A stretch of DNA of 64,000 nucleotides from an uncultured Alphaproteobacteria bacterium (GTDB lineage: Bacteria; Pseudomonadota; Alphaproteobacteria; Sphingomonadales; Sphingomonadaceae): positions 18,449 through 82,448 of the forward strand of contig CAVTYB010000008.1 of the NCBI GenBank assembly GCA_963738825.1. Direction: 5' to 3'. Under the pieces are notes generated by a model. It worked only from the letters and a program-made list of their open reading frames with translations, made no database searches and was not told the origin of the DNA. Below, piece after piece: positions 31,913 through 50,759 of the stretch; position 1 is the stretch's first letter, and each line of letters begins with the position of its first letter. Both the position numbers and the translations under genes were made by a program.

Positions 31913-34431
31913 ATGTGGCGGAATTATTGGACGGTCGCGGTTCGGGCTCTTGCGAAGAACCAGACCTATTCGATCATCAACATCGCCGGCCTCGCGATCG
32001 GCATGGCCGCCTGCATCATGATCCTGCTCTACGTCCGCTACGAGCAGAGCTACGACAACTGGCTTCCCGATGTCGAGAACACCTACCAGCTCCAGGCCTG
32101 GTACCCCCATCCGCAGGACGGCGAGCCGATCTTCTCTGCAGATGTCGGCCTATGTCGTCGAAGGACGCGGTCAAGAAGGATTTCCCGCAGGTCGAGCGCG
32201 CCGGTCTACGTGCTCAGGACACGAGCCGGTGATCCTCAAGGACGGCCAGGCGTCGCCGACGCAAGGACTATGCTATCACCGACGACGACTTCCTGAAGGT
32301 CGTCAACCTGCCGCTGCTCGCCGGCACGACGCCTGACCGCGCGCGGACACGGCCGTGCTGTCACCAGAGCGAAGCGATCAAGCGCTTCGGCACCGACCAG
32401 GTCGTCGGCCGCACGCTGACGATCATCTCCAAGGGCGTCACGCGCGACTTCAAGATCACCGGCGTGTTCAAGGACATTCCGAAGAACTCGCAGCCTCAAG
32501 CTCAACGCGCATCCTGCGGATCGACTTCAACAGCTTCTTGGCGCAGACAGCCGGAGTTCCTGACCTGCTGGGGCTGCCAGTCGGGCTGGGTCTATCTGAA
32601 GCTTCGGCCCGGCACCGACGTCAAGGCAGATCAGGCGCAGGAGCCGGCCTGGGAGAAGCGCAACATCCCCGACGAGATCGAACGGCGACATCCGCTACAA
32701 CCAGGGCGACGACCAGGACTGGCACTTCGTCAACGTGCGCGACGTCCATCTCGGCAAGGCGCAGGACGGCGCGATGACGCCGGGCAACGACCGGCGGACG
32801 ATCGCGACCTTCGCGATCATCGCCGTGCTGATCCTCGGCATGGCGGTCGTGAACTTCACCAACCTCGCGACCGCCCGCGCCAGCCAGCGGGCGCGCGAAG
32901 TCGCGCTGCGCAAGGTGCTCGGCGCGACGCGCAGGCAGCTGATCGTCCAGTTCGTCGCGGAATCGATCCTGATTTCGGCGGTCGCGATGCTGCTCGCGCT
33001 GGCCCTCGTCGAACTGCTCGTGAGGCCGTTCGCCGCCTTCCTCGATGCCGACCTCGCGCTGAACTATTTCGGCAGCGACGGGATTCTGCTGCCGGCGATC
33101 GGGCTGACCTTGCTCGTCGGGATCGTCAGCGGCCTCTATCCCGCCTTCTTCCTGTCGCGCTTCCAGCCGGCGCAGGTGCTCAAGGCCAACCGGTCGGCAG
33201 CCGAGACGCCGGGCTCGGGCCGGCTGCGGCAGCGCTGGTCGTCGCTGCAGTTCGCGGTCTCGATCGGCCTCATCATCTGCACCGCCGTGATCTACGGGCA
33301 GACGGTCTACGCGCGCTCGGTCGATCCGGGCTACAAGCGCGACCACATCCTCCAGGTCGAGAATATCGGACCGCGCGCAGCTGCTCGTCGAAGGCCGAGA
33401 TGATCGTCGAGCAGATGAAGCGGGTTCCCGGCGTCGTTGCGGTCGGCGCTGACCGACATCGGCGTCGCCACCGACAATCAGTAGCAACACCGGCGTCATC
33501 CCGCCCGGGAGCAACCAAGCAGGTCGACGATCGGCAACTATAATGTCGACGCCGGATTTCTTCGACGCGATGGGCCTGAAGCTGATCGCCGGCCGCTGGT
33601 TCGATCGCGAACCGGCCGATGGACGACATGACGCTCCCTTTCCGCCCGATCCAGAACGCCGGAGATCGCGCTCGCCGCGCGCGGCGTCAACGTCGTGATC
33701 AACGAGCTATGCGGCGAAGAAGCTCGGCTTCAAATCGCCGCAGGATGCGGTCGGCAAGGTCGTCACGAGCGAGCTCTGCTCCGAGACCCGGCACCGGTGA
33801 CGACATCACCATCATCGGCGTGGTCGGCGACACCCGCTTCCGCTCGGTGCGCACGCCGATCGAGCCGATCATGTTCCAGAAGTCGAGGGCCGGGCCGAGC
33901 TGGATGATGATCCGCTACCGCGGCGATCCGGCGACCAGTTCGAAGCGGCGGTCGAGCGGCAGTGGAAGCAGCTCACCAACGACGTGCCGTTCGAAGCCAA
34001 GTTCAGCGAGGACATCGTGCGCGAGCTGTACAAGGCGGAGGATGCGCGGGCGCAGATCTTCGCCGCCTTCTCGCTGCTCGCGGTCGATCATCGGCTGCCT
34101 CGGCCTGTTCGGCCTCGCCGCCTTCACCGCCGAGCGGCGGACCAAGGAGATCGGCATCCGCAAGGTGCTTGGCGCGCGCACGCGCGACATCGTCCGGCTG
34201 CTGGTGTGGCAGTTCAGCCGGCCGGTGATCATCGCCAATGTCATCGCCTGGCCGGTCGCCTGGTGGATGATGCGCGACTGGCTGAACGGCTTCGACCAGC
34301 GGATCGCGCTGACGCCGGTGCCCTTCCTCATCGCGGCCGCGATCGCGCTCGGGATCGCGATCGCGACGGTCGTCGGCCACGCGGTGAAGGTCGCGCGGGC
34401 CAATCCGATCCACGCCCTGCGGTACGAGTAA
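31913..34431 (+). CDS. ABC permease, duplicated MacB/FtsX type, copy 1 (frameshifted)
   Basis: INIAGLAIG, NFTNLATARA..RAREVALRKVLGA, RTKEIGIRKVLGA, ANPIHALRYE. Confidence 0.88.
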
Positions 34432-34477
34432 GCATCGAGGCCGTTCGAACTCGAAGGACGAGGGACAGGAAGTCACC

Positions 34478-36998
34478 ATGTGGCGGAACTACTGGACCGT
34501 CGCAGTTCGGGCGCTCGCGAAGAGCAAGACCTATTCGATCATCAACATCGCGGGCCTCGCCATCGGCATGGCCGCGTGCATCATGATCCTGCTCTACATC
34601 CGCTACGAGCAGAGCTACGACAAATGGCTTCCGGACGTTGAGAACACCTACCAGCTCCAGGCCTGGTACCCGCATCCCAAGGACGGCGAGCCGGCCTATC
34701 CTGCAGATGTCGGCCTATGTGACGAAGGACGGCGATCAAGAAGGATTTCCCGCAGGTCGAGCACGCGGTCTACGTGCCAGGACAACGATCCCGTCTTCAT
34801 CAAGGACGGCCAGGCGTCGGCGACCAAGGACTAGCTGTTCGCCGACGACGATTTCCTCGAAGGTCGTCAACCTGCCGCTTGTCGCCGGCACGAGCACTCA
34901 CCGCGCCGCAAACCGCGGTCATTACGCAGCGCGAGGCGATCAAGCGCTTCGGTACCGACCAGGTCGTCGGCCGCACGCTGACCGATCATCTCGCGCGGGC
35001 GTCAAGCGCGATTTCAAGATCACCGGCGTGCTCAAGGACGTGCCGAAGAACTCGAGCATGAAGATCGACGCGATCCTGCGGCTCGACTTCAACAGCTTCT
35101 ATGCCGACAATCCGCAGTTCCTGACATGCTGGGGCTGCCAGTCGGGCTGGGTCTATGTGAAGCTGCGGCCGGGAACGGACGTCCGCCAGCTCGAGGCGCA
35201 GATGCCGGCCTGGGAGAAGCGCAACATCCCCGACGAGATCGAACGGCAATCATGCGCTCCAACGCCGGGCGACGAGCAGGACTGGCACTTCGTCAACCTG
35301 CGCCGACGTCCATCTCGGCAAGGCCCAGGACGAGCTCGATGACTCCGGGCAATGACCGGCGCACGATCACGACGTTCGCGATCATCGCCGTGCTGATCCT
35401 CGGCATGGCGGTCGTGAACTTCACCAACCTCGCGACCGCGCGGGCCAGCCAGCGCGCGCGCGAAGTGGCGCTGCGCAAGGTGCTTGGCGCGACGCGCAGG
35501 CAGTTGATCGTGCAGTTCGTCGCGGAATCCGTCCTGATTTCGGCGGTCGGCGATGCTGCTCGCGCTTGCGCTGGTCGAACTGCTGGTGAGGCCGTTCGCC
35601 GCGTTCCTCGATGCCGACATCGCGCTCACCTATTTCGGGAAGCGGCGGCATCCTGCTGCCGGCGATCGGCCTGACCTTGCTGGTCGGGATCCTCAGCGGC
35701 CTCTATCCCGCCTTCTTCCTCTCGCGCTTCCAGCCGGCGCAGGTGTTGAAGGCCAACCGCTCGGCCGCCGAGACGCCGGGCTCGGGGCGCATTCGCGACC
35801 GTCGCTGGTCGTGTTCCAGTTCGCGGTCTCGATCGGCCTCATCATCTGCACCGCGGTGATCTACGGCCAGACGGTCTTCGCGCGCTCGGTCGATCCCGGC
35901 TACAAGCGCGACCACATCCTCCAGGTCGAGGAGCTCGGCCGCGCGCAGCTGTCGGCCGAAGGCCGAGATGATCGTCGAGCCAGATGAAGCGCATCCCCGG
36001 CGTCGTCGCTGCGTCGCTGACCGACATCGGCGTCAACACCGACAACCAGAGCAACACCTACATCATCCCGCCCGGGAGCAACCAGCAGGTCGCTGATCGG
36101 CCAGTACAATGTCGGCGCGGACTATCTTCGAACGCGATGGGCCTGAAGCTGCTCGCCGGCCGCTGGTTCGATGCCGAACCGGCCGATCGACGACATGACG
36201 CACGCCCTATCCGCCCGACCCGAACGTCGAGAAGGCGCTCGCGCAGCGCGGCGTCAACGTCGTCATCAACGAATATGCGGCGCAGCAAGCTGGGCTTCAA
36301 ATCGCCGCAGGATGCGGTCGGCAAGGTCGTCAGGGGCAAGCTGCTCTCGGACGACGCCGGGATCATGAACATCACCATCATCGGCGTCGTCGGCGACACG
36401 CGCTTCCGCATCGGTGCGCACGCCGATCGAGCCGATGATGTTCCACAAGGTCACGCCGGGCCCGGCTGGATGATCATCCGCTATCAGCGGCGATCCCGGC
36501 GACGGTGAAGGGCGGCGGTCGAGCGGCAGTGGAAGCAGATCACCAACGAAGTGCCGTTCAACGCCAAGTTCAGCGAGGACATCATCGGCGAGCTGTACAA
36601 GAAGGAGGATGCGCGGGCGCAGATCTTCGCGGCCTTCTCGCTGCTCGCGGTGATCATCGGCTGCCTCGGCCTGTTCGGACTCGCCGCGTTCACCGCGGAG
36701 CGGCGGACCAAGGAAATCGGCATCCGCAAGGTGCTCGGCGCGCGGACTCGCGACATCGTTCAGCTGCTCGTGTGGCAGTTCAGCCGGCCCGGTGATCATC
36801 GCCAACGTCATCGCCTGGCCGGTCGCCTGGTGGATGATGCGCGACTGGCTGAACGGCTTCGACCAGCGGATTGCGCTGACTCCGATCCCGTTCGTGATCG
36901 CCGCGGCGATCGCGCTCGGGATCGCGATCGCCACGGTCGTCGGCCACGCGGTGAAGGTCGCTCGGGCCAATCCCATCCACGCGTTGAGATATGAGTAA
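34478..36998 (+). CDS. ABC permease, duplicated MacB/FtsX type, copy 2 (frameshifted)
   Basis: Same motifs; close tandem paralog of copy 1. Confidence 0.88.
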
Positions 36999-37079
36999 GA
37001 AGGCAAAGAAGTTTCGAGTTTTGTCCGCCGACCAGCTCGTTCACTTGCGCCTCAGCGGTTTCGAACCGCGATAGCTCAA

Positions 37080-37724
37080 TCAGGGATGGGCGATTCCGTA
37101 GAAGTCGCTGATCCCTGTCAGGAGGAACTGCATGCCGATCGCGATCAGCAGGAATCCAAAGATCCGGGTCATCGCATCGATCCCGGACTTGCCCATGAAC
37201 CGCACCATCGTGCTCGCCGCGCGCAGCACGAAATATGAGAACACCAACGTCAGCGCCATTCCGATGAGCACTGCGGCATAGATCAGGCCGAAGTCGTTAG
37301 GCCTGATACTCCTGATCTGGGCAGCGGCGGTGAGGACAACCGAGATCGATCCAGGTCCTGCAAGGCTTGGCATTGCAAGCGGCGTAAAGGCGATCTCGAG
37401 TTCCTTTGGGTGTTCCTCGCTCGATCCTCCGCTCGGCGGAGCGGGGAACAGCATCCGAAATCCGATTACCGAAATGATCAAGCCGCCCGCTACGCGCAGT
37501 CCCGGCACCGATATGCCGAAGAAGTCGATGATCGCTGCGCCGATCAGAAGGAAGGTCGCGAGGATCCCAAACGCGTAGATACACGCGAGCAAGGCCTGTC
37601 GCTTTTGGACATCCTTGCTCGTGCCCGCGGTCAGCGAAACGAATAGCGGAGCCGTGCTGAACGGATTTATGATCGGCAGTAGGCTGCCGATCGTGAGTGC
37701 AATGGCTTCCCAGAAGATGTCGAT
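37080..37724 (-). CDS. MarC family membrane protein (start uncertain)
   Basis: IINPFS, FFGISVPGLRVAGG, PLAMPSLAGPGSI, RIFGFLLIAIGMQF. Confidence 0.9.
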   Translation of the reverse strand: MDIFWEAIALTIGSLLPIINPFSTAPLFVSLTAGTSKDVQKRQALLACIYAFGILATFLLIGAAIIDFFGISVPGLRVAGGLIISVIGFRMLFPAPPSGGSSEEHPKELEIAFTPLAMPSLAGPGSISVVLTAAAQIRSIRPNDFGLIYAAVLIGMALTLVFSYFVLRAASTMVRFMGKSGIDAMTRIFGFLLIAIGMQFLLTGISDFYGIAHP

Positions 37725-38239
37725 GGCTCAAACCCCGCCGCCTGTGAATGCCGGCCGCGAGCGGCGGTCTCAATGGGGTGTTCTACCGAGCCGCCATTCA
37801 AATTCGCGCAGGTGGCGGAGCGGGAGGCTTCCGAGGCCTCGCCGTAAGCTGTTGAAAAACAGTGATTCTATCACGGGCGCTATCCGCTGGCTCGACAAGG
37901 GAGCCCTATCGCATCGAGGGATGATCGTTCCGGCTCTTCCCACCCGATCTTCCGACCGCGGCGGCCGGGAATTGGGGCTCGGCCTTTCACTCGTCACTGG
38001 CCATGTCGGCCGTCGTTGGCGTCGACCGCGTCTATCTCGCTTCAAAGGAGGTCGTTCTGCGGTTCGAGTGCGGCTCTTGCTGTGCGTAGCGCTCAAAGCT
38101 TAAACCCCGACTGATTCTCGTGCCTGCGGCCCCCCCCCGCTAACGCGCAAGTGTCTGCTTTCGACCCATTCCTGCCGCTAGCGGATCGCGCAAACTCCGT
38201 TGGGGCTTTGCCGCGCCGTCTTAATTCTCCGTCCCAACT

Positions 38240-38512
38240 TTAGCTGTGCGTCGTGGTGGTCACGGTTTTCTTCACCACGACGTGATGCGTCATCTCGCAC
38301 CGCTTCTTCCCGTGCTTTGTGATGTAGTGGTCGCAATGCACGGCATGGTGATGCGCGCGATGATGCGTCGTGTGATGAACGGGCACGTTCGTTTCATGAA
38401 TCTCACGCGTCGTGGTGTGTACATGCGTATTCGTGGCGGACGTATTGCTTTGCGCAAGGGCAGGTGAGGAAATCAGGGTAGCGCCGGCGATAAGCGATCG
38501 AACAATTTTCAT
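38240..38512 (-). CDS. Small secreted His/Thr-rich protein
   Basis: AGGAGG RBS, signal peptide, HHTTHHRAHHHAVHCDH...KKRC. Confidence 0.75.
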   Translation of the reverse strand: MKIVRSLIAGATLISSPALAQSNTSATNTHVHTTTREIHETNVPVHHTTHHRAHHHAVHCDHYITKHGKKRCEMTHHVVVKKTVTTTTHS

Positions 38513-38729
38513 GGGGTTCCTCCTGTTTTCAAAGCCCAGGATGAACAAAGCTCCCGACCAAAGATTTGTTGCCGAACATTACGGTCTTGTAATGCGCGAA
38601 CATGCCGTGCCCCTTCAGGGCTGCCACCAGGGAACCTGCGCGAGCAAGCCTGTCTGTTTCCTGTCGAGCACCGCCATCAGGAATTCATTGACGACCGCTA
38701 TGCACCGCCACTCAACCGGAGGTCGGCCA

Positions 38730-38963
38730 GTGCAGAGCGACTTGCAGTATTTCCGCATTAGGGCTCAGGAAGAGATTGACGCATCGATGTCGGCGCAATC
38801 GACCTCGGCTCGCAAAGCACACCTCGAGCTGGCGCAGCGATACACCGAAATTGCGGATGCGATTGAGGAAAGCGAGCCGCGGATGCGGGTCAATCGTCCA
38901 GCGGAACCTGCTCCTGGGCTCGCCTCAGCTCAGCGTCATCGATCGCGCGGAGAAGTTCAGTAA
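38730..38963 (+). CDS. Small helical hypothetical protein
   Basis: GGAGG RBS; DLQYFRIRAQEE...ARKAHLELAQRY, a motif common in small sphingomonad proteins. Confidence 0.65.
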   Translation: MQSDLQYFRIRAQEEIDASMSAQSTSARKAHLELAQRYTEIADAIEESEPRMRVNRPAEPAPGLASAQRHRSRGEVQ

Positions 38964-39045
38964 AGGTTGGCGCTTCTTCGACTGGCCAGACGTAGGAGAG
39001 CGTTGGGCCAAGCGCGTCCAGGTCCGTTTTCGGTCCATTGCGGAC

Positions 39046-39561
39046 TCAGGCGGCAAGGTTAGGTGGCCCTAGGTGCCGCAGGAAGTCTGGCTTGCCGAGC
39101 GATACGCCCGCATTGCGGAGAATCGCGTAGGCGGCCGTGTTGTGAAAAAAGAAGTTGGGAAGCGCAAAGCCGGTAAGATACTCAGCACCGCGGAAACGAT
39201 AGCCCGTCCCGTTCGGGAACTTGATGACAACCTCCCGATCTTCGCTGCCTTCGAGCGAGCGCGCATCGAAGCCCTTAACGTAATCCATCGTCCGATCGCA
39301 CCGATCCCTAAGCTCGGCGAAGCTCGTCTCGGTGTCAGGCATCGACGGGGCCTCTGTGCCGGTGAGCCGGGCGAGCGCGTTCTTCGCCGAATCTGAAGCC
39401 ATCTGATACTGCGCCGGCAAAGGCCTCATATCGGGAGCAAGCCGGGCTTCCATGAGAGCCGTCGCATCCTTCTCTTGCGCAGCCTTGTCGAGCCATTCGC
39501 GCATGTTCGTGAGCGAGTTGACGAACACCGGCACTGACGCGTTCCACATCTCAAAGCTCAT
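39046..39561 (-). CDS. DUF1993 family protein
   Basis: ARLAPDMRPL..Q, ALPNFFFH..AYAILRNAGVSLGKPDF. Confidence 0.92.
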   Translation of the reverse strand: MSFEMWNASVPVFVNSLTNMREWLDKAAQEKDATALMEARLAPDMRPLPAQYQMASDSAKNALARLTGTEAPSMPDTETSFAELRDRCDRTMDYVKGFDARSLEGSEDREVVIKFPNGTGYRFRGAEYLTGFALPNFFFHNTAAYAILRNAGVSLGKPDFLRHLGPPNLAA

Positions 39562-39690
39562 TGCCTAGCCTTCTCTGTCGTTGAAGCGTCGGCATGGAAC
39601 CTTCGGCAGACGACCGCAATGGGTCGGCAGCTAACATGTCAGAAGCGGAGGCTCGGCACAGAGCCACCGTCAGCGAGCTCAATGATTACG

Positions 39691-40092
39691 CTAAGGGGTG
39701 TTCGTTTCTCCGTCCGGCGTAAGCTCCACCAATCCCATCACATTGCCGGCGGGGTCAGTAAACAATGCGAGCGCGGCGACGCCCTTAACCTCGAAGCGCG
39801 GAGCAATGATCTTGCCGCCATTTGCGGCGATCTCCCGCAATGTTGCGCTTATGTCCGGCACTCCAAGGTAGATCACCTTGGCTGCTGGATGGGTTCGAAG
39901 TGTGCCACTTAGATGAGGGCCGGATACCGGAACGGATACAGTGCCGCCCGGTCCTGGTGCCCATCCGAACACCTTCTGATAGAAACCCAGTTGGATGGCC
40001 TCGGAAGGCCCCGCAATATCGAGGTAGACAATGGGCGCCGGTGGTCGTGCTGGCACCGGCTGAGCCTGGGACGGAGTTGCGACGGCGCTCAT
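39691..40092 (-). CDS. VOC/glyoxalase family protein
   Basis: FYQKVFGW, IYLGVPDI, GGKII, FTDPAGNVMGL. Confidence 0.85.
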   Translation of the reverse strand: MSAVATPSQAQPVPARPPAPIVYLDIAGPSEAIQLGFYQKVFGWAPGPGGTVSVPVSGPHLSGTLRTHPAAKVIYLGVPDISATLREIAANGGKIIAPRFEVKGVAALALFTDPAGNVMGLVELTPDGETNTP

Positions 40093-40315
40093 CTACGCTC
40101 CGATCAATCGTAAAGGAGCGCCGATTGTAGCTATCACGCTAACGGCAGCAATGGGTCGAAAGCTGACATTTCCTCTTGCGGCGTTTCGCCCATATCGAAC
40201 TCACCAGCTTATGCCCCGGCCCTGGGCACTTACTGCTGTATCCGGCGAGGCGTATAGCGCGCTCGCCGCCCATCTGATTCGTTCGGCGGCCGTATCTCTA
40301 ATCGGGGGAAAGACC

Positions 40316-40789
40316 ATGAGACATTTGAAACTCGCACTAATCCTCGCAACGATCACCTTGTCCGCGCAGGCCGCAGCCGCAGCCGCGCCTGACGCGAAGA
40401 CGTGGAGTGGCACCTGGCACCTGAATGCCACCGCTTCGAAATGGGGCGCGGCCGGCAAGGAACAGAGCGAAACGCGGAGCTATGACTATTCCGGCGGCAA
40501 GCTCAGCATGAAGTCGAGCGCCAAGGATTCGGCGGGCAAGGAGACCAACTTTAGCTATTCGGCGGGATGCGACGGGAAATCCGCTCCGATGACCGGAAAT
40601 CCCAACGCAGACAGCATCTCGCTGACTTGCGTCAGTGGCAGCGAGATCAAAGCGACGTCGCGCATGAAGGGCAAGGTGACCGTGCAATCCACCGCGACCG
40701 TATCTGCAGATGGCAAGCACCTGACGCTGAAGCGGACCTACGTCAGCATGAAGGGCGCGCCCACCGAAGTGCTGGAGTTCACGCGCTAG
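40316..40789 (+). CDS. Secreted lipocalin-like beta-barrel protein
   Basis: Signal peptide, WSGTWHLN..S, DGK, VSADGKHLT. Confidence 0.7.
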   Translation: MRHLKLALILATITLSAQAAAAAAPDAKTWSGTWHLNATASKWGAAGKEQSETRSYDYSGGKLSMKSSAKDSAGKETNFSYSAGCDGKSAPMTGNPNADSISLTCVSGSEIKATSRMKGKVTVQSTATVSADGKHLTLKRTYVSMKGAPTEVLEFTR

Positions 40790-40892
40790 GCAGGCATGGA
40801 GACGCCCGGGGCTTTGCGCGCCGGGCGCTTTCCGCCGCGGAGGCTTGCTTTGCAATGTCAGCTTTGGGTCGAAAACTGACACTGAACCTCGC

Positions 40893-41615
40893 TCAGCTCT
40901 CCCGGCCGAAGCGGAGCAGCTGACCGATCCCGAACAGGATCGCCGGAAACATGATGCAGACAGCGATCGGAAAGCTGATTGTTTGCCCCGGTGGACTGAT
41001 GAGCCGTGGAGCCAGGTAGAAGAACGTGGCAGCGCCGGCGGTGATGACTACCCATTCCAGGAACAGCCGCGCGGCGATTGACTTCTGAGAGACCGCGGGA
41101 GCAGCCGGCAGAGGGAAGTTCACCACTGGCCCAGCAGCCGCAACCAGCTTGGCCCAGCTCGCTGCGTTGATTTTCAGTCTTCCGTTCGTCTGGTTGCCCA
41201 GACCAAGCTTTACCATTTTCGTGAAGAAGCTGCGGGAGGGCTCCGCCGTGATCTCCGTCCATGGGATTAGCAGCGGCTTCTGGAATGGCCCGAAAACGCG
41301 CCACATTCGAATGGAAAGTCCGGATCGCAAGGCAGCCAGCGTGAGCACTCCGTTGAGGTTGACGCCTAAGCCCATCACTCCGGATTGCCAGCCGAGCTTC
41401 AGCAGTGGCTCCTCATCTCCATCGTCCGCGTACCACTGTTGGAGGCTGAACCAGCCCGACATGACGCCCATTAACGTCGTGACGAGCAACCACATTCCCG
41501 CAAAGATGAACGGGAAGCCGATGGGGAGCCATTTGATGACCTGGTCGTCCGTCACTGCCGTTTGATACCGGACAATGAGGAACGCTCCAATGAATGTGGC
41601 CGCCAAGCGGCTCAC
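40893..41615 (-). CDS. Membrane hypothetical protein
   Basis: TM helices, SGW.L..Y, PLLIPWTEI; start uncertain. Confidence 0.65.
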   Translation of the reverse strand: MSRLAATFIGAFLIVRYQTAVTDDQVIKWLPIGFPFIFAGMWLLVTTLMGVMSGWFSLQQWYADDGDEEPLLKLGWQSGVMGLGVNLNGVLTLAALRSGLSIRMWRVFGPFQKPLLIPWTEITAEPSRSFFTKMVKLGLGNQTNGRLKINAASWAKLVAAAGPVVNFPLPAAPAVSQKSIAARLFLEWVVITAGAATFFYLAPRLISPPGQTISFPIAVCIMFPAILFGIGQLLRFGRES

Positions 41616-41670
41616 GTCCGCAATGGGTCGGACGCAGACATCGGCACTTCCAGGAGCCGACGGGCCGACT

Positions 41671-42450
41671 CTATTTTGCCTTCGGTTTCGTCAGCGGATT
41701 TGCAAGGACCCGCTGGATAGCGCCCTTGCTCGGCGCTTCGCCGTAGTGGGCTTCGAAGGCGCCCATCGGTTTGCAATGGCCCGGGCGCTCTCGGGTCTCA
41801 TCGTCGGTGTAAAGGCGGACTGACGCAGGGTCGTAGGCGATGCCGTAAATCTTCAGGAGTTGGGTCATCCTGAGCGCGCCCAGCGAAATCATTCGGTTGA
41901 TTGACCGTGCTTGACTGATCGCCGCTCGAGCTGAAGCAGCGTCCTCGCCGCTGAATTCGCGCCCTGGGCCAACTAGCTGGTACAGGTTGGTCCAGGTGTC
42001 GATCTCGCGCAGCTGGTACTGATTGAGGTCGGTGATGAAATCGTAAGTACCGGAAAGCGCTTGCAGCTTCTCGCGATCCTGGTGGTTGGCGATGTCGCCA
42101 TTGACCATGCTCTGCCAGGCACCGCTCGGCCAGGTGAAATACTGCGGTGTGGGCACGCGCCCGATTGGTGGCAGACGTTTCGATGCAGCCGCTCCATCGA
42201 CAACCCCGGCCAGCCAGTCGAGACGCTGCTCAACGCATGGACTTTCATCCACCCGAACGATCGCTTGGCCAACAGACTCCCCTAGCTCGAGTTCGAGTGC
42301 CCTGTTGCTTTCGTGCAAGCGTTGTCGCCAGTGAACGTCCTCTACGACCTGTTCCGCCGCGAGTGCGATCAGGACGCCGACTACGATGATGCCCACTTCG
42401 CCTGCGAACTCGCGCCAGCCGTGCAGCGGCTTTGGTAGATGGAAGTGCAT
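41671..42450 (-). CDS. Hypothetical protein of the 'HLPKPLHGWR' type (N-terminal TM anchor)
   Basis: MHFHLPKPLHGWREFAGEVGIIVVGVLIALAAEQ. Confidence 0.8.
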   Translation of the reverse strand: MHFHLPKPLHGWREFAGEVGIIVVGVLIALAAEQVVEDVHWRQRLHESNRALELELGESVGQAIVRVDESPCVEQRLDWLAGVVDGAAASKRLPPIGRVPTPQYFTWPSGAWQSMVNGDIANHQDREKLQALSGTYDFITDLNQYQLREIDTWTNLYQLVGPGREFSGEDAASARAAISQARSINRMISLGALRMTQLLKIYGIAYDPASVRLYTDDETRERPGHCKPMGAFEAHYGEAPSKGAIQRVLANPLTKPKAK

Positions 42451-42598
42451 TTGACTGGCCCCCGGCAAATGAAGGCTAACAGATGTTGTTATCGGGGCAA
42501 TGGGAAGTCGGCACGAATGGCAGGATGGGTCGAGACAGGCCTGAGCCAATAGAGTCCGGTTTGGGTGGAAAGCTCACATAGCACCGCATTACCGTTGA

Positions 42599-43018
42599 TT
42601 GATGGCGGGTTACCGACACGACGTGGATGCGGACGATCAGTTGGCGGGCCGTATTCTTCGCCGAGCTCTCAAGGGCACACGCGCCTATGGCTGCCTGTTT
42701 GCCATCCTGCTGGGCGGGGCCATGTCCTTTGTCATCTTCCTCGGAAACATCATGGGAGACTGCACTCCCGGCCCCGGGTGCCATGACCACGACGCTCTTC
42801 ACATAATTGAGGACTTGGCAGTCGCTTTGCCAATGGCCGCGCTTATGGGGGCGGGTGTGTGGTTGCTCGCTAGTGCTACGCGAGCGGTTCTTCAGCCGGT
42901 GCTTGGTGAGCGGGTCGTCATTCTGCTTCTTCTTGCGCTGACACTCGCTCTGGCATGGTTTGGCTTTCAACCTGCAATGGAGGCATTCTTTCGGTGGACC
43001 TTCCCCGCTGGTTCATAG
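42599..43018 (+). CDS. Three-TM hypothetical protein
   Basis: Hydrophobic helices with a GDCTPGPGCHD loop. Confidence 0.65.
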   Translation: MMAGYRHDVDADDQLAGRILRRALKGTRAYGCLFAILLGGAMSFVIFLGNIMGDCTPGPGCHDHDALHIIEDLAVALPMAALMGAGVWLLASATRAVLQPVLGERVVILLLLALTLALAWFGFQPAMEAFFRWTFPAGS

Positions 43019-43051
43019 TGTCTTCTTTGGGTCGAAAGCAGACTCGCGGAG

Positions 43052-43774
43052 CTAATTCACGTCGCTGGGTGCAAAATGGCGCTGTGGATTTGGCGGTCCG
43101 GCGCATTCTCCGGCCCACGAGCGACTGACCTTCAGTAGCCGCGTCTTCTCTTCTCGCGAAGGTTCGATGCCATGCTCTTTCAGCTGACCGAGCAACAGTG
43201 TCTCTCCAAGTTCTACGCGGTCGAGCAATTCATGAACTCGGCCTGCCTGTCTTTGGTAAGCACCGATCTCTGCGGTTGTGATTGGCGAAACGCCGTTGCT
43301 GAGCGACCGCAGCTCCGCAGCCTCCTCGTGCAACCTAGGTATCGCCCCGGCGAGGTCTTGGGAGAGAAAGAAAAGCCCTGAATAGAGAGCAACCATTTGT
43401 GGGCGCATGTGATCGGCGACCTGCATCGCTCTGGCATCAAGCCAAGCATCCTCGGTAAACACTTCCAATGGTGGAGTCAGCTGGCGGGTCGCTTGAACAT
43501 TCCCGGTCTGGCGAGCGGACGCAAGTGCCTTGTCTATCGAATTGAGTTGCTGGTCCACGCACGGGGCCACCGTCAACCAGTCGTAAGCGCTTACCGCGTC
43601 CCGGTGAAGCTCAGCGTCAAGTATCCCCTGCGTCTGCGCAGCTTTCTGATGCCATTGCCAGCTTTCCACCACTTGCTGCGCGCCGAGGGCAATCAACACG
43701 CCGACGACGATTATCCCGATTTCGCCGGCGAGCTGGCGCCAGCCGTGCAGCGGCTTGGGCAGGTGGAAACGCAT
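43052..43774 (-). CDS. Second 'HLPKPLHGWR' paralog
   Basis: MRFHLPKPLHGWRQLAGEIGIIVVGVLIALGAQQ. Confidence 0.8.
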   Translation of the reverse strand: MRFHLPKPLHGWRQLAGEIGIIVVGVLIALGAQQVVESWQWHQKAAQTQGILDAELHRDAVSAYDWLTVAPCVDQQLNSIDKALASARQTGNVQATRQLTPPLEVFTEDAWLDARAMQVADHMRPQMVALYSGLFFLSQDLAGAIPRLHEEAAELRSLSNGVSPITTAEIGAYQRQAGRVHELLDRVELGETLLLGQLKEHGIEPSREEKTRLLKVSRSWAGECAGPPNPQRHFAPSDVN

Positions 43775-43920
43775 GAAGCCCCGAACTCGGCTTACGCGAG
43801 AACTGCGCGGTTTGCTAATATCTGCTTTGGCTCGAGAGCGACATTGTCGGTGCCCCCTTTCGTGAGGCGGTTTCCAATCCCACCATTGGCTCTTACACGT
43901 GAGCTGAAGGGAACGGACGA

Positions 43921-45819
43921 ATGACGGACGTATTCGTCTCGTACAAGTCCGAGGATCGCCGGCGCGTCCGACCTTTGGTGGCGGCACTTGAGGCGGATGG
44001 CCTCTCGGTGTGGTGGGACACCCAGATCAGTGGTGGTGCCGCGTGGCGCAAGTGCATCGAGGATCAGCTCGATGCTGCCAAATGTGTCATCGTTGTCTGG
44101 AGCAAGCGTTCGTTGAAGCCAGACGCAAACTTCGTCCGTGACGAAGCGTCGCGGGCCTTGGAACGAGGCATCTACTTGCCTGTCAAGCTCGACGGCAGTC
44201 GCCCGCCGCTGGGATTCGGCGAGACACAAGCCTTGCCTCTTGCGCGGTGGACGGGTGATCGATCGGATGTTCGCTATCAATCGCTGTTGGCATCCGCGCG
44301 GTCCATCATCGGGCACCGTCCGTTACCGGCTCACCCCTATGTAACGCCGCCGATGTCCCGCCGAGCGGCAATGATCGGTGGATCCGCCGCTATTGCCGTG
44401 GCAGCGGCAGCAAGCGGAGCATGGTACTTTTACGACTCTTGGACGGTCTCGTCCTCGAACAGCATCGCCGTCCTTCCCTTTGCCAACCTGAGCGCCGATC
44501 CGGCCCAAGCTTATTTCTCAGACGGAATGGCAGAGGAGCTGCGCACATCCCTGTCGCGGTTGGGAGGCCTGAAGGTCATCGGGCGTACGTCGTCCGAAGT
44601 CGTCCGCAACGACGATGCGGAGACGGCCGCGAAAAAACTTAATGTGGCGAATGTGCTGACCGGCAGCGTGCGCCGCTCGCCCTCGACGGTCCGGGTGACC
44701 GCGCAATTGATCGACGGCAAGACGGGCCTTGAGTGGTGGTCGCAAGATTATGATCGGGCACCAGGGGACACCATCAAAATCCAGACGGACATCGCGGAAA
44801 AGGTGGCACAGGCGCTTAAGATCGCGTTGGGAACGGCAGGGCGAGCCGTGCTGACCGTCGGGGGCACCCAAAACGTCGATGCGCAGAACCTCGTCCTCCA
44901 AGCCGACGCGCTGCTACAGAGTATCTTCAATGAGCAAAGAGCCCGGAGGGGGCTGGAGCTTGTCGATGCCGCAATCGCGCTCGACCCCAGTTACGCGGGA
45001 GCATACGCGAGACGGGGACTGCTGCTGAACACAATCTCACTCTTCTTTTCTCATGGATCAAGCGAGCTTAAGGCGGGGCAATTCCTCGCGCTCCAGTCAG
45101 CAAACAAAGCGGTCGCGCTTGCACCGAGGCTCGGGTGGGCTCACCTCGCGGTTGCGCAAGTAAAGTTCGGACAGCTTCAAATCGCTTCGGCCTGGACGGG
45201 CTACCGCCGAGCGCTGCAGCTCGGCCCGAGCGATGCCAATACCCAGCGCCTTTACGCTCGCTTCCTTGCCTTCATCGGCAGGAAGCAAGAAGCGTTGGCG
45301 CTTGCGGACCAAGCCATTGCGCTCGAACCTCTTAGTGCTGAATCCTACAGTTTTCGGACATTCGTATTGTACCACGCTCGGCGGTACGCCGACGCAGTAA
45401 GCAGCGGGCGAGAATTACGGCTACATTCGCCCAGCTTATTTCACCCACCCATCGAGTACGGCTACTGTCTGATCATGCTCGGTCAGGGCGCCGCGGCGAA
45501 AGCCTCATTCGAAAACGGGACTCCTGACGACCCCGGACGAATGACGGGTGAAGCAGTTCTAATGGCGCGCACTGGCGACAGACAGGGTGCGCTGCAGAAG
45601 ATCGCCCGATTGCAGGAGGTGATTCGAGACAACGCAAACTATTCAATCGCTCAAATATACGCGCAGCTCGGAGAGGCAGATCACGTCTTTACCGCCCTGG
45701 ATCGCTCGTTCGAGGTTACCGACGCCGGTCTGATCGGTTTGTTGACGGACCCATTCATGGATCCGATCCGCAACGATGCCCGGTTCAAAACGGTTTTGGC
45801 TAGACTTAGCTATCCGTGA
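43921..45819 (+). CDS. TIR domain + TM + TolB-like/TPR protein
   Basis: DVFVSY, VWWD, VIVVWS..S, VRDEA; SIAVLPFANLS...YFSDGMAEEL; TPR helices. Confidence 0.9.
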   Translation: MTDVFVSYKSEDRRRVRPLVAALEADGLSVWWDTQISGGAAWRKCIEDQLDAAKCVIVVWSKRSLKPDANFVRDEASRALERGIYLPVKLDGSRPPLGFGETQALPLARWTGDRSDVRYQSLLASARSIIGHRPLPAHPYVTPPMSRRAAMIGGSAAIAVAAAASGAWYFYDSWTVSSSNSIAVLPFANLSADPAQAYFSDGMAEELRTSLSRLGGLKVIGRTSSEVVRNDDAETAAKKLNVANVLTGSVRRSPSTVRVTAQLIDGKTGLEWWSQDYDRAPGDTIKIQTDIAEKVAQALKIALGTAGRAVLTVGGTQNVDAQNLVLQADALLQSIFNEQRARRGLELVDAAIALDPSYAGAYARRGLLLNTISLFFSHGSSELKAGQFLALQSANKAVALAPRLGWAHLAVAQVKFGQLQIASAWTGYRRALQLGPSDANTQRLYARFLAFIGRKQEALALADQAIALEPLSAESYSFRTFVLYHARRYADAVSSGRELRLHSPSLFHPPIEYGYCLIMLGQGAAAKASFENGTPDDPGRMTGEAVLMARTGDRQGALQKIARLQEVIRDNANYSIAQIYAQLGEADHVFTALDRSFEVTDAGLIGLLTDPFMDPIRNDARFKTVLARLSYP

Positions 45820-45945
45820 GCCTTCTTCCGTTCGTGCCAGGCGAGCAAGCAGTTAACGTCCGATTTGGGTCAAAAGCAGACATCGCGCCAATATCCAGCT
45901 GGCTGCGATGGTGGCGGTGAGATCGCAAATCAGGGGAGAGAGGCG

Positions 45946-46356
45946 ATGATAACGGCGATTCCGTTGACGTTGAACTTGCTGCTATTGATGGGCCTCTACG
46001 AGTTAGCCGCTGGAATCGCCGGTCTGACTGGCCAAGTCACCTGGAGTAAATTGCTGGACCAGTTCGACCGCTCGCCTGCACTGACGTTCATGATGGGCTT
46101 TGTGGTCTATGTGCTCGGCGCTGTCGTCGTGCTCGTCCATTTCATCTGGACAGACCCGCTCGCAATCATCGTCTCCGCGATCGGCTGCGTCGCCGCTACC
46201 GAGGGCCTCCTGATCATGATCGCGCCAGGCCCGCTATTCGCTTTCTCGCGCCGGCTCGTCGCCAATCAGAGGCTGATTTCAATGCTCGCTGCTGCGTTCG
46301 GCCTGCTTCTCATCGGCCTCGGTCTTGCCGGTGGAGCAAATCCGGTGACCTTGTGA
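45946..46356 (+). CDS. Four-TM hypothetical protein (DUF2065-like)
   Basis: GGAG RBS; H.IWTDPLAIIVS.IG...EGLL. Confidence 0.65.
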   Translation: MITAIPLTLNLLLLMGLYELAAGIAGLTGQVTWSKLLDQFDRSPALTFMMGFVVYVLGAVVVLVHFIWTDPLAIIVSAIGCVAATEGLLIMIAPGPLFAFSRRLVANQRLISMLAAAFGLLLIGLGLAGGANPVTL

Positions 46357-46683
46357 CACGAAAGTCCTGAACCGCGACTGTCGACCGAAATAAATCGGGA
46401 GCCAGCCGCTTTTGTGCTGACTGCTTACGTCCGCAATGGGTCGAAAGCTGCCCACTAGCGACGGACTGAACCAACGTCCGCTTACGGGCTGGGCCGAGGT
46501 GCATGGCAATGGCGTGGATGGGCGCTTAGCAGACATTGGGGTGCCGGCAGTGGCCGGCTCCGAGCACATGGCCCCAGCGCAGAGTCTCGGCCGGGCGGGT
46601 GCGACAAGCGATCCAATGTGAAATCCGGTTCGAGTCTGCCTAGGCGGGTCGCTAAGGCTGACCAGCGCAGGTAGTGAGCCAGC

Positions 46684-48358
46684 ATGCAACACGCCAGAAC
46701 TCCATGAGGCGCTCGCCACAGCGCTCAGTTCCCGCGGTTATAAGCAGCTGACCCCGGTCCAGTCCGCGGTCATCGCGGAGGAGGCTGACGGCCGCGACCT
46801 GATCGTGTCCGCCAAGACCGGATCAGGAAAAACCGTCGCCTTCGGCATGGCAATGGCGGAGCAGCTGTTTGAGGCGGGGCGGCTGCCCTTCTCGCGTGGG
46901 CCGCTGGCATTGGTTATCGCTCCGACGCGCGAGCTCGCGATCCAGGTCAGTCGCGAGCTCGACTGGCTATACGCGAACGCCGGCGCGCGCGTCGTCACCT
47001 GCGTCGGTGGAATGGACCCGATGAAGGAGCGCCGGGCATTGGCAGGCGGTGTGCACATCGTTGTCGGCACCCCCGGGCGGCTTCGCGATCATCTGGAACG
47101 CGGCGCGCTCGACCTGTCGTCGCTGCGTGTAGCGGTGCTCGACGAGGCCGACGAGATGCTCGACATGGGCTTCCGCGAGGAGCTTGAAGAGATCCTCGAT
47201 GCCACGCCGCAGGAACGGCGCACCCTGCTGTTCTCGGCAACCATGCCGCGGCCGATCGTGGCGCTCGCGAAGCGCTACCAGAAGCACGCGTTGCGCATCG
47301 AGACCCTTGGCGACAGTCAGGGCCATCAGGACATTGCCTACCAGGCCGTGGCGGTGTCGCCAACGGACATCGAGCACGCCGTAGTCAACCTGCTTCGTTT
47401 CCACGAAGCAGAAACGACGATCCTGTTCTGCGCCACGCGGGAGGCTGTGCGCCGGCTCCACGCGAGCCTTACCGAACGGGGCTTCGATGCGGTGGCGCTC
47501 TCGGGCGAGCACAGCCAGAATGAGCGCAATCACGCGCTGCAGGCATTGCGTGACCAGCGAGCGCGGGTCTGCGTGGCGACGGATGTTGCAGCGCGCGGAA
47601 TAGACCTGCCATCGGTCTCGCTCGTGATTCACGTCGAGCTGCCGCGCGACGCCGAAGGACTGCAACATCGGTCAGGTCGCACCGGCCGCGCTGGGCGAAA
47701 GGGAACGGCTATCCTGATCGTACCGTACCAACGGCGGAAGCGGGTCGAAGGCATGCTGCGCGCCGCACGCATCAATGCGGAGTGGATCTCACCCCCGACA
47801 CCCGCCGATATCCGCGCCAAGGATCGCGAGCGGCTCCTGGTCGACGTGTCAGCTCCAGTCGATCTCGACGAGGATGATCGCGCACTCGCGCTGGAACTCG
47901 CAAAAACTCTGGAGCCAGACGTGATTGCTGCCGCGCTCGTGAAGTCGCTGCGCAGGGACATGCCTGCACCGGAGGATGTGCTCGCACCAGGCGAGCGGCC
48001 GGAGCGCGCGGCGAGATGCCGGTTCACGCCCCGGGTTCGAAGGAGCCAGTTGGTTCCGACTCAATGCCGGCCGCCGCCACAATGCTGATCCGCGATGGCT
48101 GCTTCCACTCATCTGCCGTTACGGTCACGTCGGCCGGGCGGACGTCGGTGCGATCCGGATCGCCGCCAATGAGAGCTACTTTCAGGTCAGCGAGCGAGCC
48201 ACACCTGGCTTCATGAAGGCGCTGCGCCGAGCGACAATCGCGCCCGAGGACCAGGGGCTGGTTATCGAACCCGCCCCGCCACGCGAACAGAGCTACCGGC
48301 CGGAACTCGCGCATGAAAGACCCAGGCCCAAGAAGAAGCCGCGACGATCGAAGCCAGG

Positions 48359-48362
<4 letters not shown>
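46684..48362 (+). CDS. DEAD-box RNA helicase with DbpA-type C-terminal domain (frameshifts near 46695 and 48010)
   Basis: LTPVQ, AKTGSGKT, PTRELA, TPGR, DEAD, SAT, ARGID, HRSGRTGRAG. Confidence 0.95.
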
Positions 48363-50225
<1,863 letters not shown>

Positions 50226-50759
50226 GTCGGCGCCCTAGCATCCAATCGCCGGGTGCCCAAGGCTGCTCGCTGGTGCGTGGGCAAAGACCGAGGTTTCGCC
50301 GGTCATTGCGGTTTCCCGACAACAGCCCACCTGTCGTGAGACAATCAGGTCGCAACCGGTCAGCGCAATTGCCGGACTTCCGAAGTGGGCCCGCGACAAC
50401 CGGCGTTATGTGAAATCCGGTTCGAATGCCGGCGCCGGCCATAGCTCGGGCCGTCCAGCGATATTCGACGATTGCGCACTCCACAGGAGCAGGTCCGTCA
50501 GAAGGTGGCCGAGTCCCGCTCGATCTTTAATGACTTAAATTCCAGGATAATGCGCCTCGACGCCGGCATGGCGTTCCTGGCCAACCATTTGCATCGAGAA
50601 CCGTACTGTCGGAATTGGCGCCAGAGAATGTTGGCAGGATTCCCGGCTTTGATCGAACTGCGGCGAAACCTCTCCAGTCGCCCCAGCGCGGTCAGAATGG
50701 CGCACTTCCGCGGCCCTAGAGATTTGGCGAAATATCTAATGCTATCAATGTGATAAATA

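Follow-up and report, generated by a model that had tools for sequence, protein, structure and literature searches.

A run of single accessory genes at 38151–46536 of the window (the whole 64,000-nucleotide stretch of DNA analysed here), with a 28-bp recombination-type site between neighbours, is probably one of about 12 arrays in its genome in which core sites of the tyrosine-recombinase type separate single-gene cassettes. The source genome (G000) is a Sphingomonadales MAG of 3.10 Mb that is 68% complete. The array appears to be part of an integron-like gene-shuffling system of Sphingomonadales whose hub in relatives is a very small tyrosine recombinase and which is apparently undescribed: we found no published description of such a system in the literature searched, including a classification of tyrosine recombinases (PMC8138268). 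The original prediction was of a system that captures and shuffles genes much as an integron does, through an Xer-style 11-6-11 site of its own and a recombinase acting in trans. It seems well founded, as every test that could be run on the sequences agreed with it. The arrays are positioned at synteny breakpoints. Upstream of the helicase gene that adjoins the window array, synteny with the nearest species (G039, G068, G016 and G013) is lost, and the GC content of the array is 59.4% compared with 64–66% in its flanks.

Organisation of the arrays

We mapped the sites and cassette genes of the window (see Table 1). Against the 13 copies in 8.4 kb that had been reported, we count 12 clear and 2 weak sites, and one gene was called in nearly every interval between neighbouring sites. 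As first described, the cargo is unrelated and lies on both strands (DUF1993, VOC, TIR-TPR and proteins of no known family), while the sites are co-oriented from 39610 onward. Given that the DUF1993 gene lies between inverted sites, this is where the array switches orientation. The cassette at 40316–40789 has an 88%-identical DNA copy in another context in genome G067, and that at 43052–43774 a 91%-identical copy in G055, where the sites around it are degenerate too and homology stops at the right-hand site. TIR-type cargo recurs across these arrays.

Table 1 Sites and cassette genes of the window array (positions in the window; PWM, score of the site matrix).
Feature	Position	Strand	Evidence
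Site, spacer GGGTCG, left end of array	38151–38178	-	PWM 43.2 bits
Cassette gene, 102-aa His-rich protein, signal-peptide-like N-terminus	38240–38548	-	ORF; no Pfam family
Degenerate site, spacer GGACCG	39020–39047	-	PWM 21.1 bits
Cassette gene, DUF1993	39046–39561	-	PF09351, E 3e-53; array map
Site, spacer GGGTCG	39610–39637	+	PWM 22.2 bits
Cassette gene, VOC/glyoxalase-like	39691–40092	-	PF00903, E 4e-4
Site, spacer GGGTCG, best copy in window	40142–40169	+	PWM 47.6 bits
Cassette gene, secreted 157-aa protein, no known family	40316–40789	+	
Site, spacer GGGTCG	40855–40882	+	PWM 37.9 bits
Cassette gene, 240-aa membrane protein, no family	40893–41615	-	
Site, spacer GGGTCG	41614–41641	+	PWM 31.9 bits
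Cassette gene, 259 aa; multi-copy family, conserved N-terminal membrane anchor	41671–42450	-	
Site doublet: C-type with 1-nt deletion (42517–42544), then G-type (42552–42579)	42517–42579	+	Sequence; 30.2 bits (42552)
Cassette gene, 139-aa membrane protein; stop codon adjoins next site	42599–43018	+	
Site, spacer GGGTCG	43018–43045	+	PWM 27.8 bits
Cassette gene, 240 aa, paralogue of 41671–42450	43052–43774	-	
Weak site, spacer GGCTCG	43818–43845	+	PWM 15.9 bits
Cassette gene, TIR-TPR, 632 aa	43921–45819	+	PF13676, E 2e-19
Site, spacer GGGTCA	45856–45883	+	PWM 33.1 bits
Cassette gene, small membrane protein, 122–163 aa by start codon	45865–46356	+	
Site, spacer GGGTCG, last strong one, adjoins conserved DEAD-box helicase gene	46427–46454	+	PWM 33.1 bits
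Weak degenerate site-like sequence, end of array	46509–46536	+	PWM 10.9 bits

Of 391 cassettes, 232 contained one called gene, and the median cassette length was 694 bp. Direct runs of up to 26 sites were found in six genomes, whatever the gene strand: genes lay on the same strand as the site in 208 cases and on the opposite strand in 250. We also considered a replichore polarity of the sites (i.e., KOPS-like) and rejected it; in the one-contig genome G046 most sites are '+' on either side of the recombinase locus described below, meaning that site orientation is a local property of arrays.

Sequence and distribution of the site

The site consists of 11-bp inverted arms (left, about ATGTCCGCAAT; right, about AAAGCNGACAT) around an asymmetric 6-bp spacer, GGGTSG. 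Its sequence is conserved, with CTAAT...ATTAG ends, and an extra CTA...TAG pair often lengthens it to 34 bp. A PWM seeded with the copies listed in the original prediction, then iterated over the whole genome, gave a total of about 140–150 copies; 139 sites scored at least 16 bits, whereas simulating the genome with a first-order Markov model yielded 3. At a threshold of 14 bits, 132 of 152 sites (87%) fell within 12 clusters covering 110 kb of the 3.10 Mb (3.5%), instead of being dispersed. The window does have a few copies outside this array (20655 and 22191), inside another island. The hexamer GGGTCG alone was not enriched (57 observed, 52 expected); the 15-mer core was (10 observed, 1.55 expected). 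The spacer is indeed better conserved than the arms, GGGT-G being retained in 123–136 of the 139 copies compared with 65–130 for the arm columns. Rfam and tRNA scans of 36–52 kb returned no matches at the sites.

Exchange within the spacer

Arm–arm mutual information was 0.01–0.07, against a background median of 0.04, and the paired fraction equalled its expectation, while columns inside the left arm were linked. Such independent assortment is expected if spacer crossovers join halves of different cassettes, and is unlike a hairpin under selection. We then compared cassettes found in different contexts: of 76 ends of matches of at least 80%, 30 lay within 30 nt of a site, and clean breakpoints had full identity on the homologous side as far as GGGT, with site background beyond. 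Examples are a pair within the window's genome (C4:578 kb and C6:326 kb), two arrays of G056 that share a cassette at 95% identity, and G046 and G002, which have a 2-kb cassette in common at 90% identity with unrelated flanks. The same cassette does occur elsewhere, and homology ends inside the spacer core both within and between species. Strand exchange, or an equivalent process, evidently took place inside the spacer, since each cassette carries the spacer-distal halves of both flanking sites; an alternative in principle is illegitimate or short-homology recombination, with crossovers in the 8–12 conserved core bases. With no arm covariation and with breakpoints in the spacer, the site fits strand exchange more than a REP hairpin.

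We aligned contigs from four public runs, each of a different study, to 36500–48500. Many of their 'joints' fall at sites, but these were rejected as evidence of excision: only 21–30 letters match on the shorter side of each, most likely because copies of the repeated site in other arrays map here as well. The loose end seen at 43039 corresponds to a doublet at another place in the genome (C6:316.9 kb).

A candidate recombinase where arrays diverge

The window itself encodes no recombinase, in agreement with the earlier observation. In relatives, the gene of a 203-aa tyrosine recombinase comprising only the catalytic domain was found where two arrays diverge at all 17 loci, i.e., in 10 genus genomes, Sphingomonas hankyongi, Altericroceibacterium xinjiangense and five metagenome contigs. 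The sites closest to the gene face opposite ways, '-' on one side and '+' on the other; these inverted sites are of the GGGTGG type and the arrays radiate outward both ways. In the five metagenome contigs, 31 of 31 sites on one side were '-' and 33 of 33 on the other '+'. In 7 loci the upstream site precedes the start codon by 58–62 nt.

The protein matches PF00589 (E 6e-20) and has an intact R-K-H-R-H-Y set, read in the sequence as LRGCDL, QQKT, HSLRRT, LLGH and VRY. Its similarity to XerC and XerD is confined to their catalytic domain, and its nearest relatives are the catalytic domains of XerC, XerD and XerH. No more than about 35 residues lie ahead of the catalytic domain and the core-binding domain is absent, so the enzyme may not act alone. 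The family has more than 8000 homologues, and 425 plasmid records carry it.

In several array-rich genomes, G072, G045, G013 and G066 (94–99% complete), the gene was not found, and it is broken in G056 and G016. More distant members (54–58% identity) are present in genomes without arrays, and on a Bosea plasmid the recombinase gene stands alone. Genome G032 enters the analysis only through tallies over 61 genomes. The assembled part of the window's genome carries only truncated fragments of the gene, and in this the window array resembles an integrase-less (CALIN-like) array. Large integrases at array ends in G056 were set aside as ordinary island integrases that are not conserved with the arrays. 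Association at the divergence points makes the 203-aa Xer-like protein the putative enzyme of these sites.

Alternative explanations and known systems

It is possible, if unlikely, that we are dealing with REP/BIME-like palindromes, intergenic and either selfish or structural, that have no dedicated recombinase and accumulate in accessory islands, where host homologous or illegitimate recombination between copies reshuffles genes. As with REPs, the sites are short (28–34 bp), imperfect, intergenic palindromes that are lineage-specific (here, to the genus) and variable in copy number (0 to about 100 among species), and an IS110-family element inserts into them. IS110-family elements likewise insert into REPs. 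Arrays also persist in genomes without the small recombinase, and no transposase is known for the CGTC-type REPs of Alphaproteobacteria (PMC3733652). However, REPs of the GTAG/CGTC families are dispersed and have an unpaired 5' tag, an 8–9-bp stem with compensatory variation and a 4–5-nt loop, and those of the CGTC type for the most part form head-to-head dimers (Di Nocera et al. 2013, PMC3733652). By contrast, in our sites the CGTC/TGTC letters lie within an arm, the spacer has 6 nt, arm changes are not compensatory, doublets are direct, head-to-tail, at 35 bp, and copies are clustered (87% in 3.5% of the genome) and strictly direct for up to 26 sites despite mixed gene strands. RAYT genes (Y1 HUH transposase, PF01797) were found in only 4 of 61 genus genomes, with none in the 68%-complete genome of the window or in the complete, array-rich G046, G072, G056 and G068. 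That all 17 loci have the recombinase gene where the arrays diverge also speaks against palindromes without an enzyme of their own.

A decidedly unlikely explanation is that the sites are substrates of the host XerC/XerD pair, either alone or in combination with the small recombinase. The 28-bp layout of 11-bp inverted arms and an asymmetric 6-bp spacer is that of dif, of the pdif modules of Acinetobacter plasmids (where such sites likewise bound gene modules) and of Xer-exploiting elements (IMEX). XerC- and XerD-class genes were present in all genomes examined, which would account for arrays without the small recombinase, and the latter is itself Xer-like and lacks a core-binding domain. Compared by eye, however, the arms do not resemble the proteobacterial dif consensus, which Carnoy and Roten are said to have described in 2009. 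No conserved dif of the genus was located for comparison: a search for a dif-like pattern gave one match in the window's genome (C4:601 kb), not conserved in five relatives. Furthermore, pdif sites alternate whereas ours form direct runs, and the present arrays have dozens of sites each and a dedicated minimal recombinase at the hub, the invariant placement of which would be left unexplained.

The sites come in two types, C and G, which share a common arm consensus and differ in essentially one spacer base. At least 56 C-then-G doublets were found, head-to-tail at exactly 35 bp, and none in the opposite order. The commonest boundary pair of cassettes was G...C (143 of 357); G...G, C...C and C...G were also common, and many boundaries were single sites. 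That each unit is an independent two-ended element (G-type end left, C-type right) inserting beside an existing end, with arrays as tandem pile-ups, would suit the ordered doublets and the prevalence of G...C, but is highly improbable given the shared arms, the single-site boundaries and the other common pairs.

Returning to a site-specific recombination system, layout, breakpoints in the spacer and a recombinase gene nearby (at the 17 loci of relatives) are what a simple site of the lox/FRT/dif type would present. FimB/FimE invertases and Rci shufflons also have recombinases of about 200 aa with little beyond the catalytic domain and a gene flanked by inverted sites; weak NCBIfam matches of the 203-aa protein were to PRK09870 and PRK09871, far below the family cut-offs. 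Their inverted repeats, however, surround a promoter or alternative gene ends, whereas ours are mostly direct repeats around unrelated whole genes.

The closest parallels are with integrons and CALINs: mostly single, promoter-independent accessory genes between co-oriented recombination sites, a tyrosine recombinase gene beside arrays (here in relatives), integrase-less arrays elsewhere in the genome, cargo that consists of small proteins of unknown nature and of genes resembling toxins or defence functions (TIR, RES), and an IS110-family element that targets the array sites. Integron attC sites are targeted by the IS1111-attC group. The system is nevertheless not an integron, because it has neither IntI nor attC. 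The best match to IntI (TIGR02249) in G000, G046, G072, G056 and G068 reached 79 bits against a cut-off of 265, and all matches were Xer-class. While attC is 55–140 nt long, folded and conserved in structure, with R''(RYYYAAC)...R'(GTTRRRY), our site is conserved in sequence over 28–34 bp, has CTAAT...ATTAG ends without arm covariation, and seems to be recognized in duplex form; that it does not match attC had been stated from the outset. Unlike in integrons, arrays extend both ways from the recombinase, which has 203 aa and no core-binding domain, and genes are not co-oriented behind a common promoter.

Discussion

Under the working we propose, a cassette between direct sites would be excised as a circle and re-inserted, building co-oriented arrays regardless of gene direction, with the exchange catalysed, as its association with the arrays suggests, by the 203-aa Xer-like recombinase. 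A recombinase encoded in the unassembled third of the genome may serve the window array in trans, or the array may be frozen in an integrase-less, CALIN-like state. Simple one-site integration does not explain the ordered doublets at 35 bp. In its broadest form, to which we give about as much credence as doubt, our interpretation is that of a second, independent bacterial gene-capture platform: an integron analogue pairing a minimal, catalytic-domain-only Xer-like tyrosine recombinase with a 28-bp duplex site of two spacer alleles, in mirror-image arrays around the recombinase gene and satellite arrays chromosome-wide.

Integrons are the only well-established means of capturing and stockpiling single genes by site-specific recombination. 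If it works as proposed, the present system would arrive at that outcome by a second route, through duplex 11-6-11 sites and a recombinase reduced to its catalytic domain. It would then offer more places in which to look for accessory and defence genes carried on cassettes, among which TIR-domain proteins recur, and assign a role to a very large, unnamed and largely unstudied family of tyrosine recombinases of about 200 aa found on hundreds of plasmids. The recombinase and its site may also offer a compact pair for genome engineering, and the cultured carriers S. hankyongi and A. xinjiangense make the system directly testable. For the Sphingomonadales themselves, it would explain hotspots of chromosome rearrangement.

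A repeated site delimits single-gene cassettes

A position weight matrix, seeded with the copies of the original prediction and iterated over the genome of the source MAG (G000; 3.10 Mb in 13 contigs, C1 to C13, 68% complete), returned 139 sites at a score of at least 16 bits, versus 3 in a Markov-simulated genome. Within this assembly the window corresponds to C8:18449-82448. The consensus of this 28-bp site is CTAATGTCnGCAAT-GGGTsG-AAAGCnGACATTAG; C-type (GGGTCG) and G-type (GGGTGG) spacers are equally common and have the same arm consensus, and column conservation is highest in the spacer and the initial bases of the right arm. Nearly all intervals between sites in the window hold one called gene each, and the genes, found on both strands, encode a DUF1993 protein, a VOC protein, a TIR-TPR protein and proteins of no known family. 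The predicted array of repeated sites with unrelated cargo in mixed orientation was thus borne out, as were the better conservation of the spacer than of the arms and the co-orientation of the sites from 39610 onward (all those found by the matrix up to 46427 are '+'). GC content is 59.4% in the window array versus 64–66% in its flanks.

Two kinds of cargo recurred. TIR-TPR proteins of ~590–660 aa repeatedly adjoin sites in several genomes, which hints at defence-type cargo. A multi-copy protein family with no Pfam match, for which there is a faint DUF6090 lead, is enriched in arrays; its N-terminal membrane anchor and 5' leader are conserved, whereas its C-terminal parts vary.

Coordinates of sites, cargo and neighbouring features (L numbers denote retrieved loci; L211, S. 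hankyongi; L212, A. xinjiangense; L213 and L216, G000)
Feature	Location	Orientation	Source
Site	window 38151	-	position weight matrix
Site	window 39020	-	position weight matrix
Sites	window 39610, 40142, 40855, 41614, 42552, 43018, 43818, 45856, 46427	+	position weight matrix
Weak copy of site	window 46509		
Copy of site with 1-nt deletion	window 42517		
Site doublets (examples)	window 42517/42552; G000 C6:316496/316531		
TIR-TPR cargo	window 43921-45819; L214:12934-14694; L211:17428-19410; L222:10620-12551; L223:3762-5681		
Multi-copy membrane-anchor family	window 41671-42450, 43052-43774; G000 C6:323.6 kb, C6:316.9 kb, C3:60.7 kb, C13:347 kb, C4:144.9 kb		
IS110-family copies	G000 C6:320680-322090 (L213); C4:574794-576212 and C4:569429-570838 (L216)		
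Inverted repeat CTCCAGC-N4-GCTGGAG	L195:2240-2291; L211:9950-10000; L212:9950-10000		
18-mer direct repeat	window 46616-46633, 50408-50425		
Tandem 246-aa paralogues	window 36266-37006, 33431-34432		
ABC-F gene, two ORFs	window 48359-48952 (197 aa), 49216-49767 (183 aa)		

Distribution and architecture of the arrays

The copies were not evenly dispersed: 132 of the 152 sites in G000 fall inside 12 clusters that make up 110 kb, the biggest of which (C6:285.7-324.4 kb) holds 55–60 sites. The motif is genus-specific, being carried by 15/18 and 54/61 genus genomes (0 to ~100 copies per genome) and by 1/12 genomes from other families of the order. Across six genomes and ~600 sites, runs in the same direction reach 26 sites and orientation flips at a few switch points only. 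The median cassette is 694 bp long, and 232 of 391 cassettes contain a single called gene, with gene strand unbiased relative to the site (208 same, 250 opposite). In all arrays, about one fifth of the boundaries are doublets spaced exactly 35 bp, always with the C-type site first and the G-type second.

Comparison with known repeat and integron families

Searches with Rfam and ARAGORN found nothing at the sites, and those for the integron integrase IntI gave Xer-level scores only. Identity with CGTC or GTAG REPs was rejected, as the sites do not have the layout described for these repeats (PMC3733652). RAYT transposases do not track the motif: they were absent from G000 (68% complete) and from the complete array-rich genomes, and occurred in 4 of the 61 genus genomes.

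In attC sites, REPs and terminators the folded strand is under selection, whereas the arms of the array site are inverted repeats on average but do not covary. Specifically, the paired fraction equals the product of column frequencies at every arm position and arm–arm mutual information is 0.01–0.07 (background median 0.04), while there is strong linkage among the columns of the left arm. This argues against folded-strand selection of the attC, REP or terminator type, and fits a site recognised as duplex DNA by a pair of protomers, with site halves being re-paired repeatedly between cassettes.

Shared cassettes end in the site core

The original prediction asked whether whole genes are gained or lost exactly at the spacer. 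An all-against-all comparison of retrieved arrays (identity at least 80%) found cassette homology ending in the site core in the clean cases. Of 76 match ends, 30 lay at most 30 nt from a site, versus a site coverage of ~4% of the compared sequence (a rough estimate rather than a computed value). Two G000 loci, at C4:578 kb and at C6:326 kb, match completely as far as GGGT, left arm included, and diverge over the last spacer bases and the right arm. In genome G056, two arrays separated by 1.1 Mb carry the same cassette (95% identity), and both homology ends fall in the core. Genomes G046 and G002 have a 2-kb cassette in common (90% identity) amid unrelated neighbours, and window cassette 43051-43767 has a 91%-identical counterpart in G055, also bounded by degenerate sites, with homology limited by the right-hand site. 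For the 7 ungapped cases, exchange maps to the stretch from the end of the left arm to the T of GGGT; a cassette therefore consists of spacer plus right arm, gene, and left arm.

Sites are also the insertion points of an IS110-family element, present in G000 as three copies 92–99% identical with a 344-aa transposase (PF01548 and PF02371). Each copy is inserted inside a site arm, in either arm, just past ...CTG, recalling the IS110/IS1111 elements that target REPs and attC.

Flanks of the window array

The DEAD-box helicase of the window is closest to those of Sphingomicrobium MAGs and Sphingomonas arenae (80% identity). In four related species (L084, L085, L086, L087), the DNA upstream of this gene, leftwards of window 46600, has synteny with four different G000 contigs, and in genome G016 it reaches the flank of a further G000 array, at C4:377 kb; the arrays are thus located at chromosomal rearrangement breakpoints.

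The helicase and an ABC-F gene 3' of it are bracketed by two copies of an identical 18-mer, ATGTGAAATCCGGTTCGA, originally noted as a dif-like pair. Both are preceded by GCGACAA, and the 18-mer has no further copy in the G000 genome and no tRNA or Rfam match. The ABC-F gene is called as two ORFs, which could be due to a frameshift, to misassembly or to a fault of the simple gene caller. The left flank carries a tandem pair of 88%-identical paralogues of a 246-aa no-family gene, a duplication also seen in several related species.

A small tyrosine recombinase at the array hub in relatives

Pfam searches of complete relatives revealed a small tyrosine recombinase within arrays. This protein of 203 aa matches only the XerC/XerD/XerH catalytic domain, retains the complete catalytic set, with ~35 residues standing in for a core-binding domain. 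Its gene lies exactly where arrays diverge, with '-' sites on one side and '+' sites on the other. This holds for 10/10 genus genomes with the clade at no less than 64% identity, for Sphingomonas hankyongi and Altericroceibacterium xinjiangense, and for five unrelated metagenome contigs (31/31 sites '-' on one side, 33/33 '+' on the other). The gene spans L211:10001-10612 in S. hankyongi (GCA_023516575.1, contig JAMGBE010000002.1) and L212:10001-10627 in A. xinjiangense. The upstream site precedes the start codon by 58–62 nt in 7 loci, the downstream site follows the stop codon by ~20 nt in compact loci, and nearly all sites proximal to the gene have a GGGTGG spacer. Far sites in G046 are oriented independently of the recombinase locus, so replichore polarity was rejected. 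Just 5' of the start codon, a conserved inverted repeat (CTCCAGC-N4-GCTGGAG) spans the ribosome-binding site and may be a translational control hairpin.

The recombinase gene was not found in several complete genomes rich in arrays, two genomes carry it in broken form, and more distant members are present without arrays. All that the G000 assembly contains of the gene is a truncated copy at C1:141.7 kb and, next to a solitary site at C4:607.7 kb, a 36-residue remnant. The family has >8000 homologues, often on ~0.77-kb contigs, which suggests that assemblies break at flanking repeats; its 425 plasmid records are annotated 'integrase' only.

Taken together, homology ending in the site core, non-covarying arms and the candidate hub recombinase of relatives support the original idea of integron-like capture and shuffling. 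The best reading of the window array is that of a satellite, lacking an integrase, in an apparently undescribed, integron-like cassette system.
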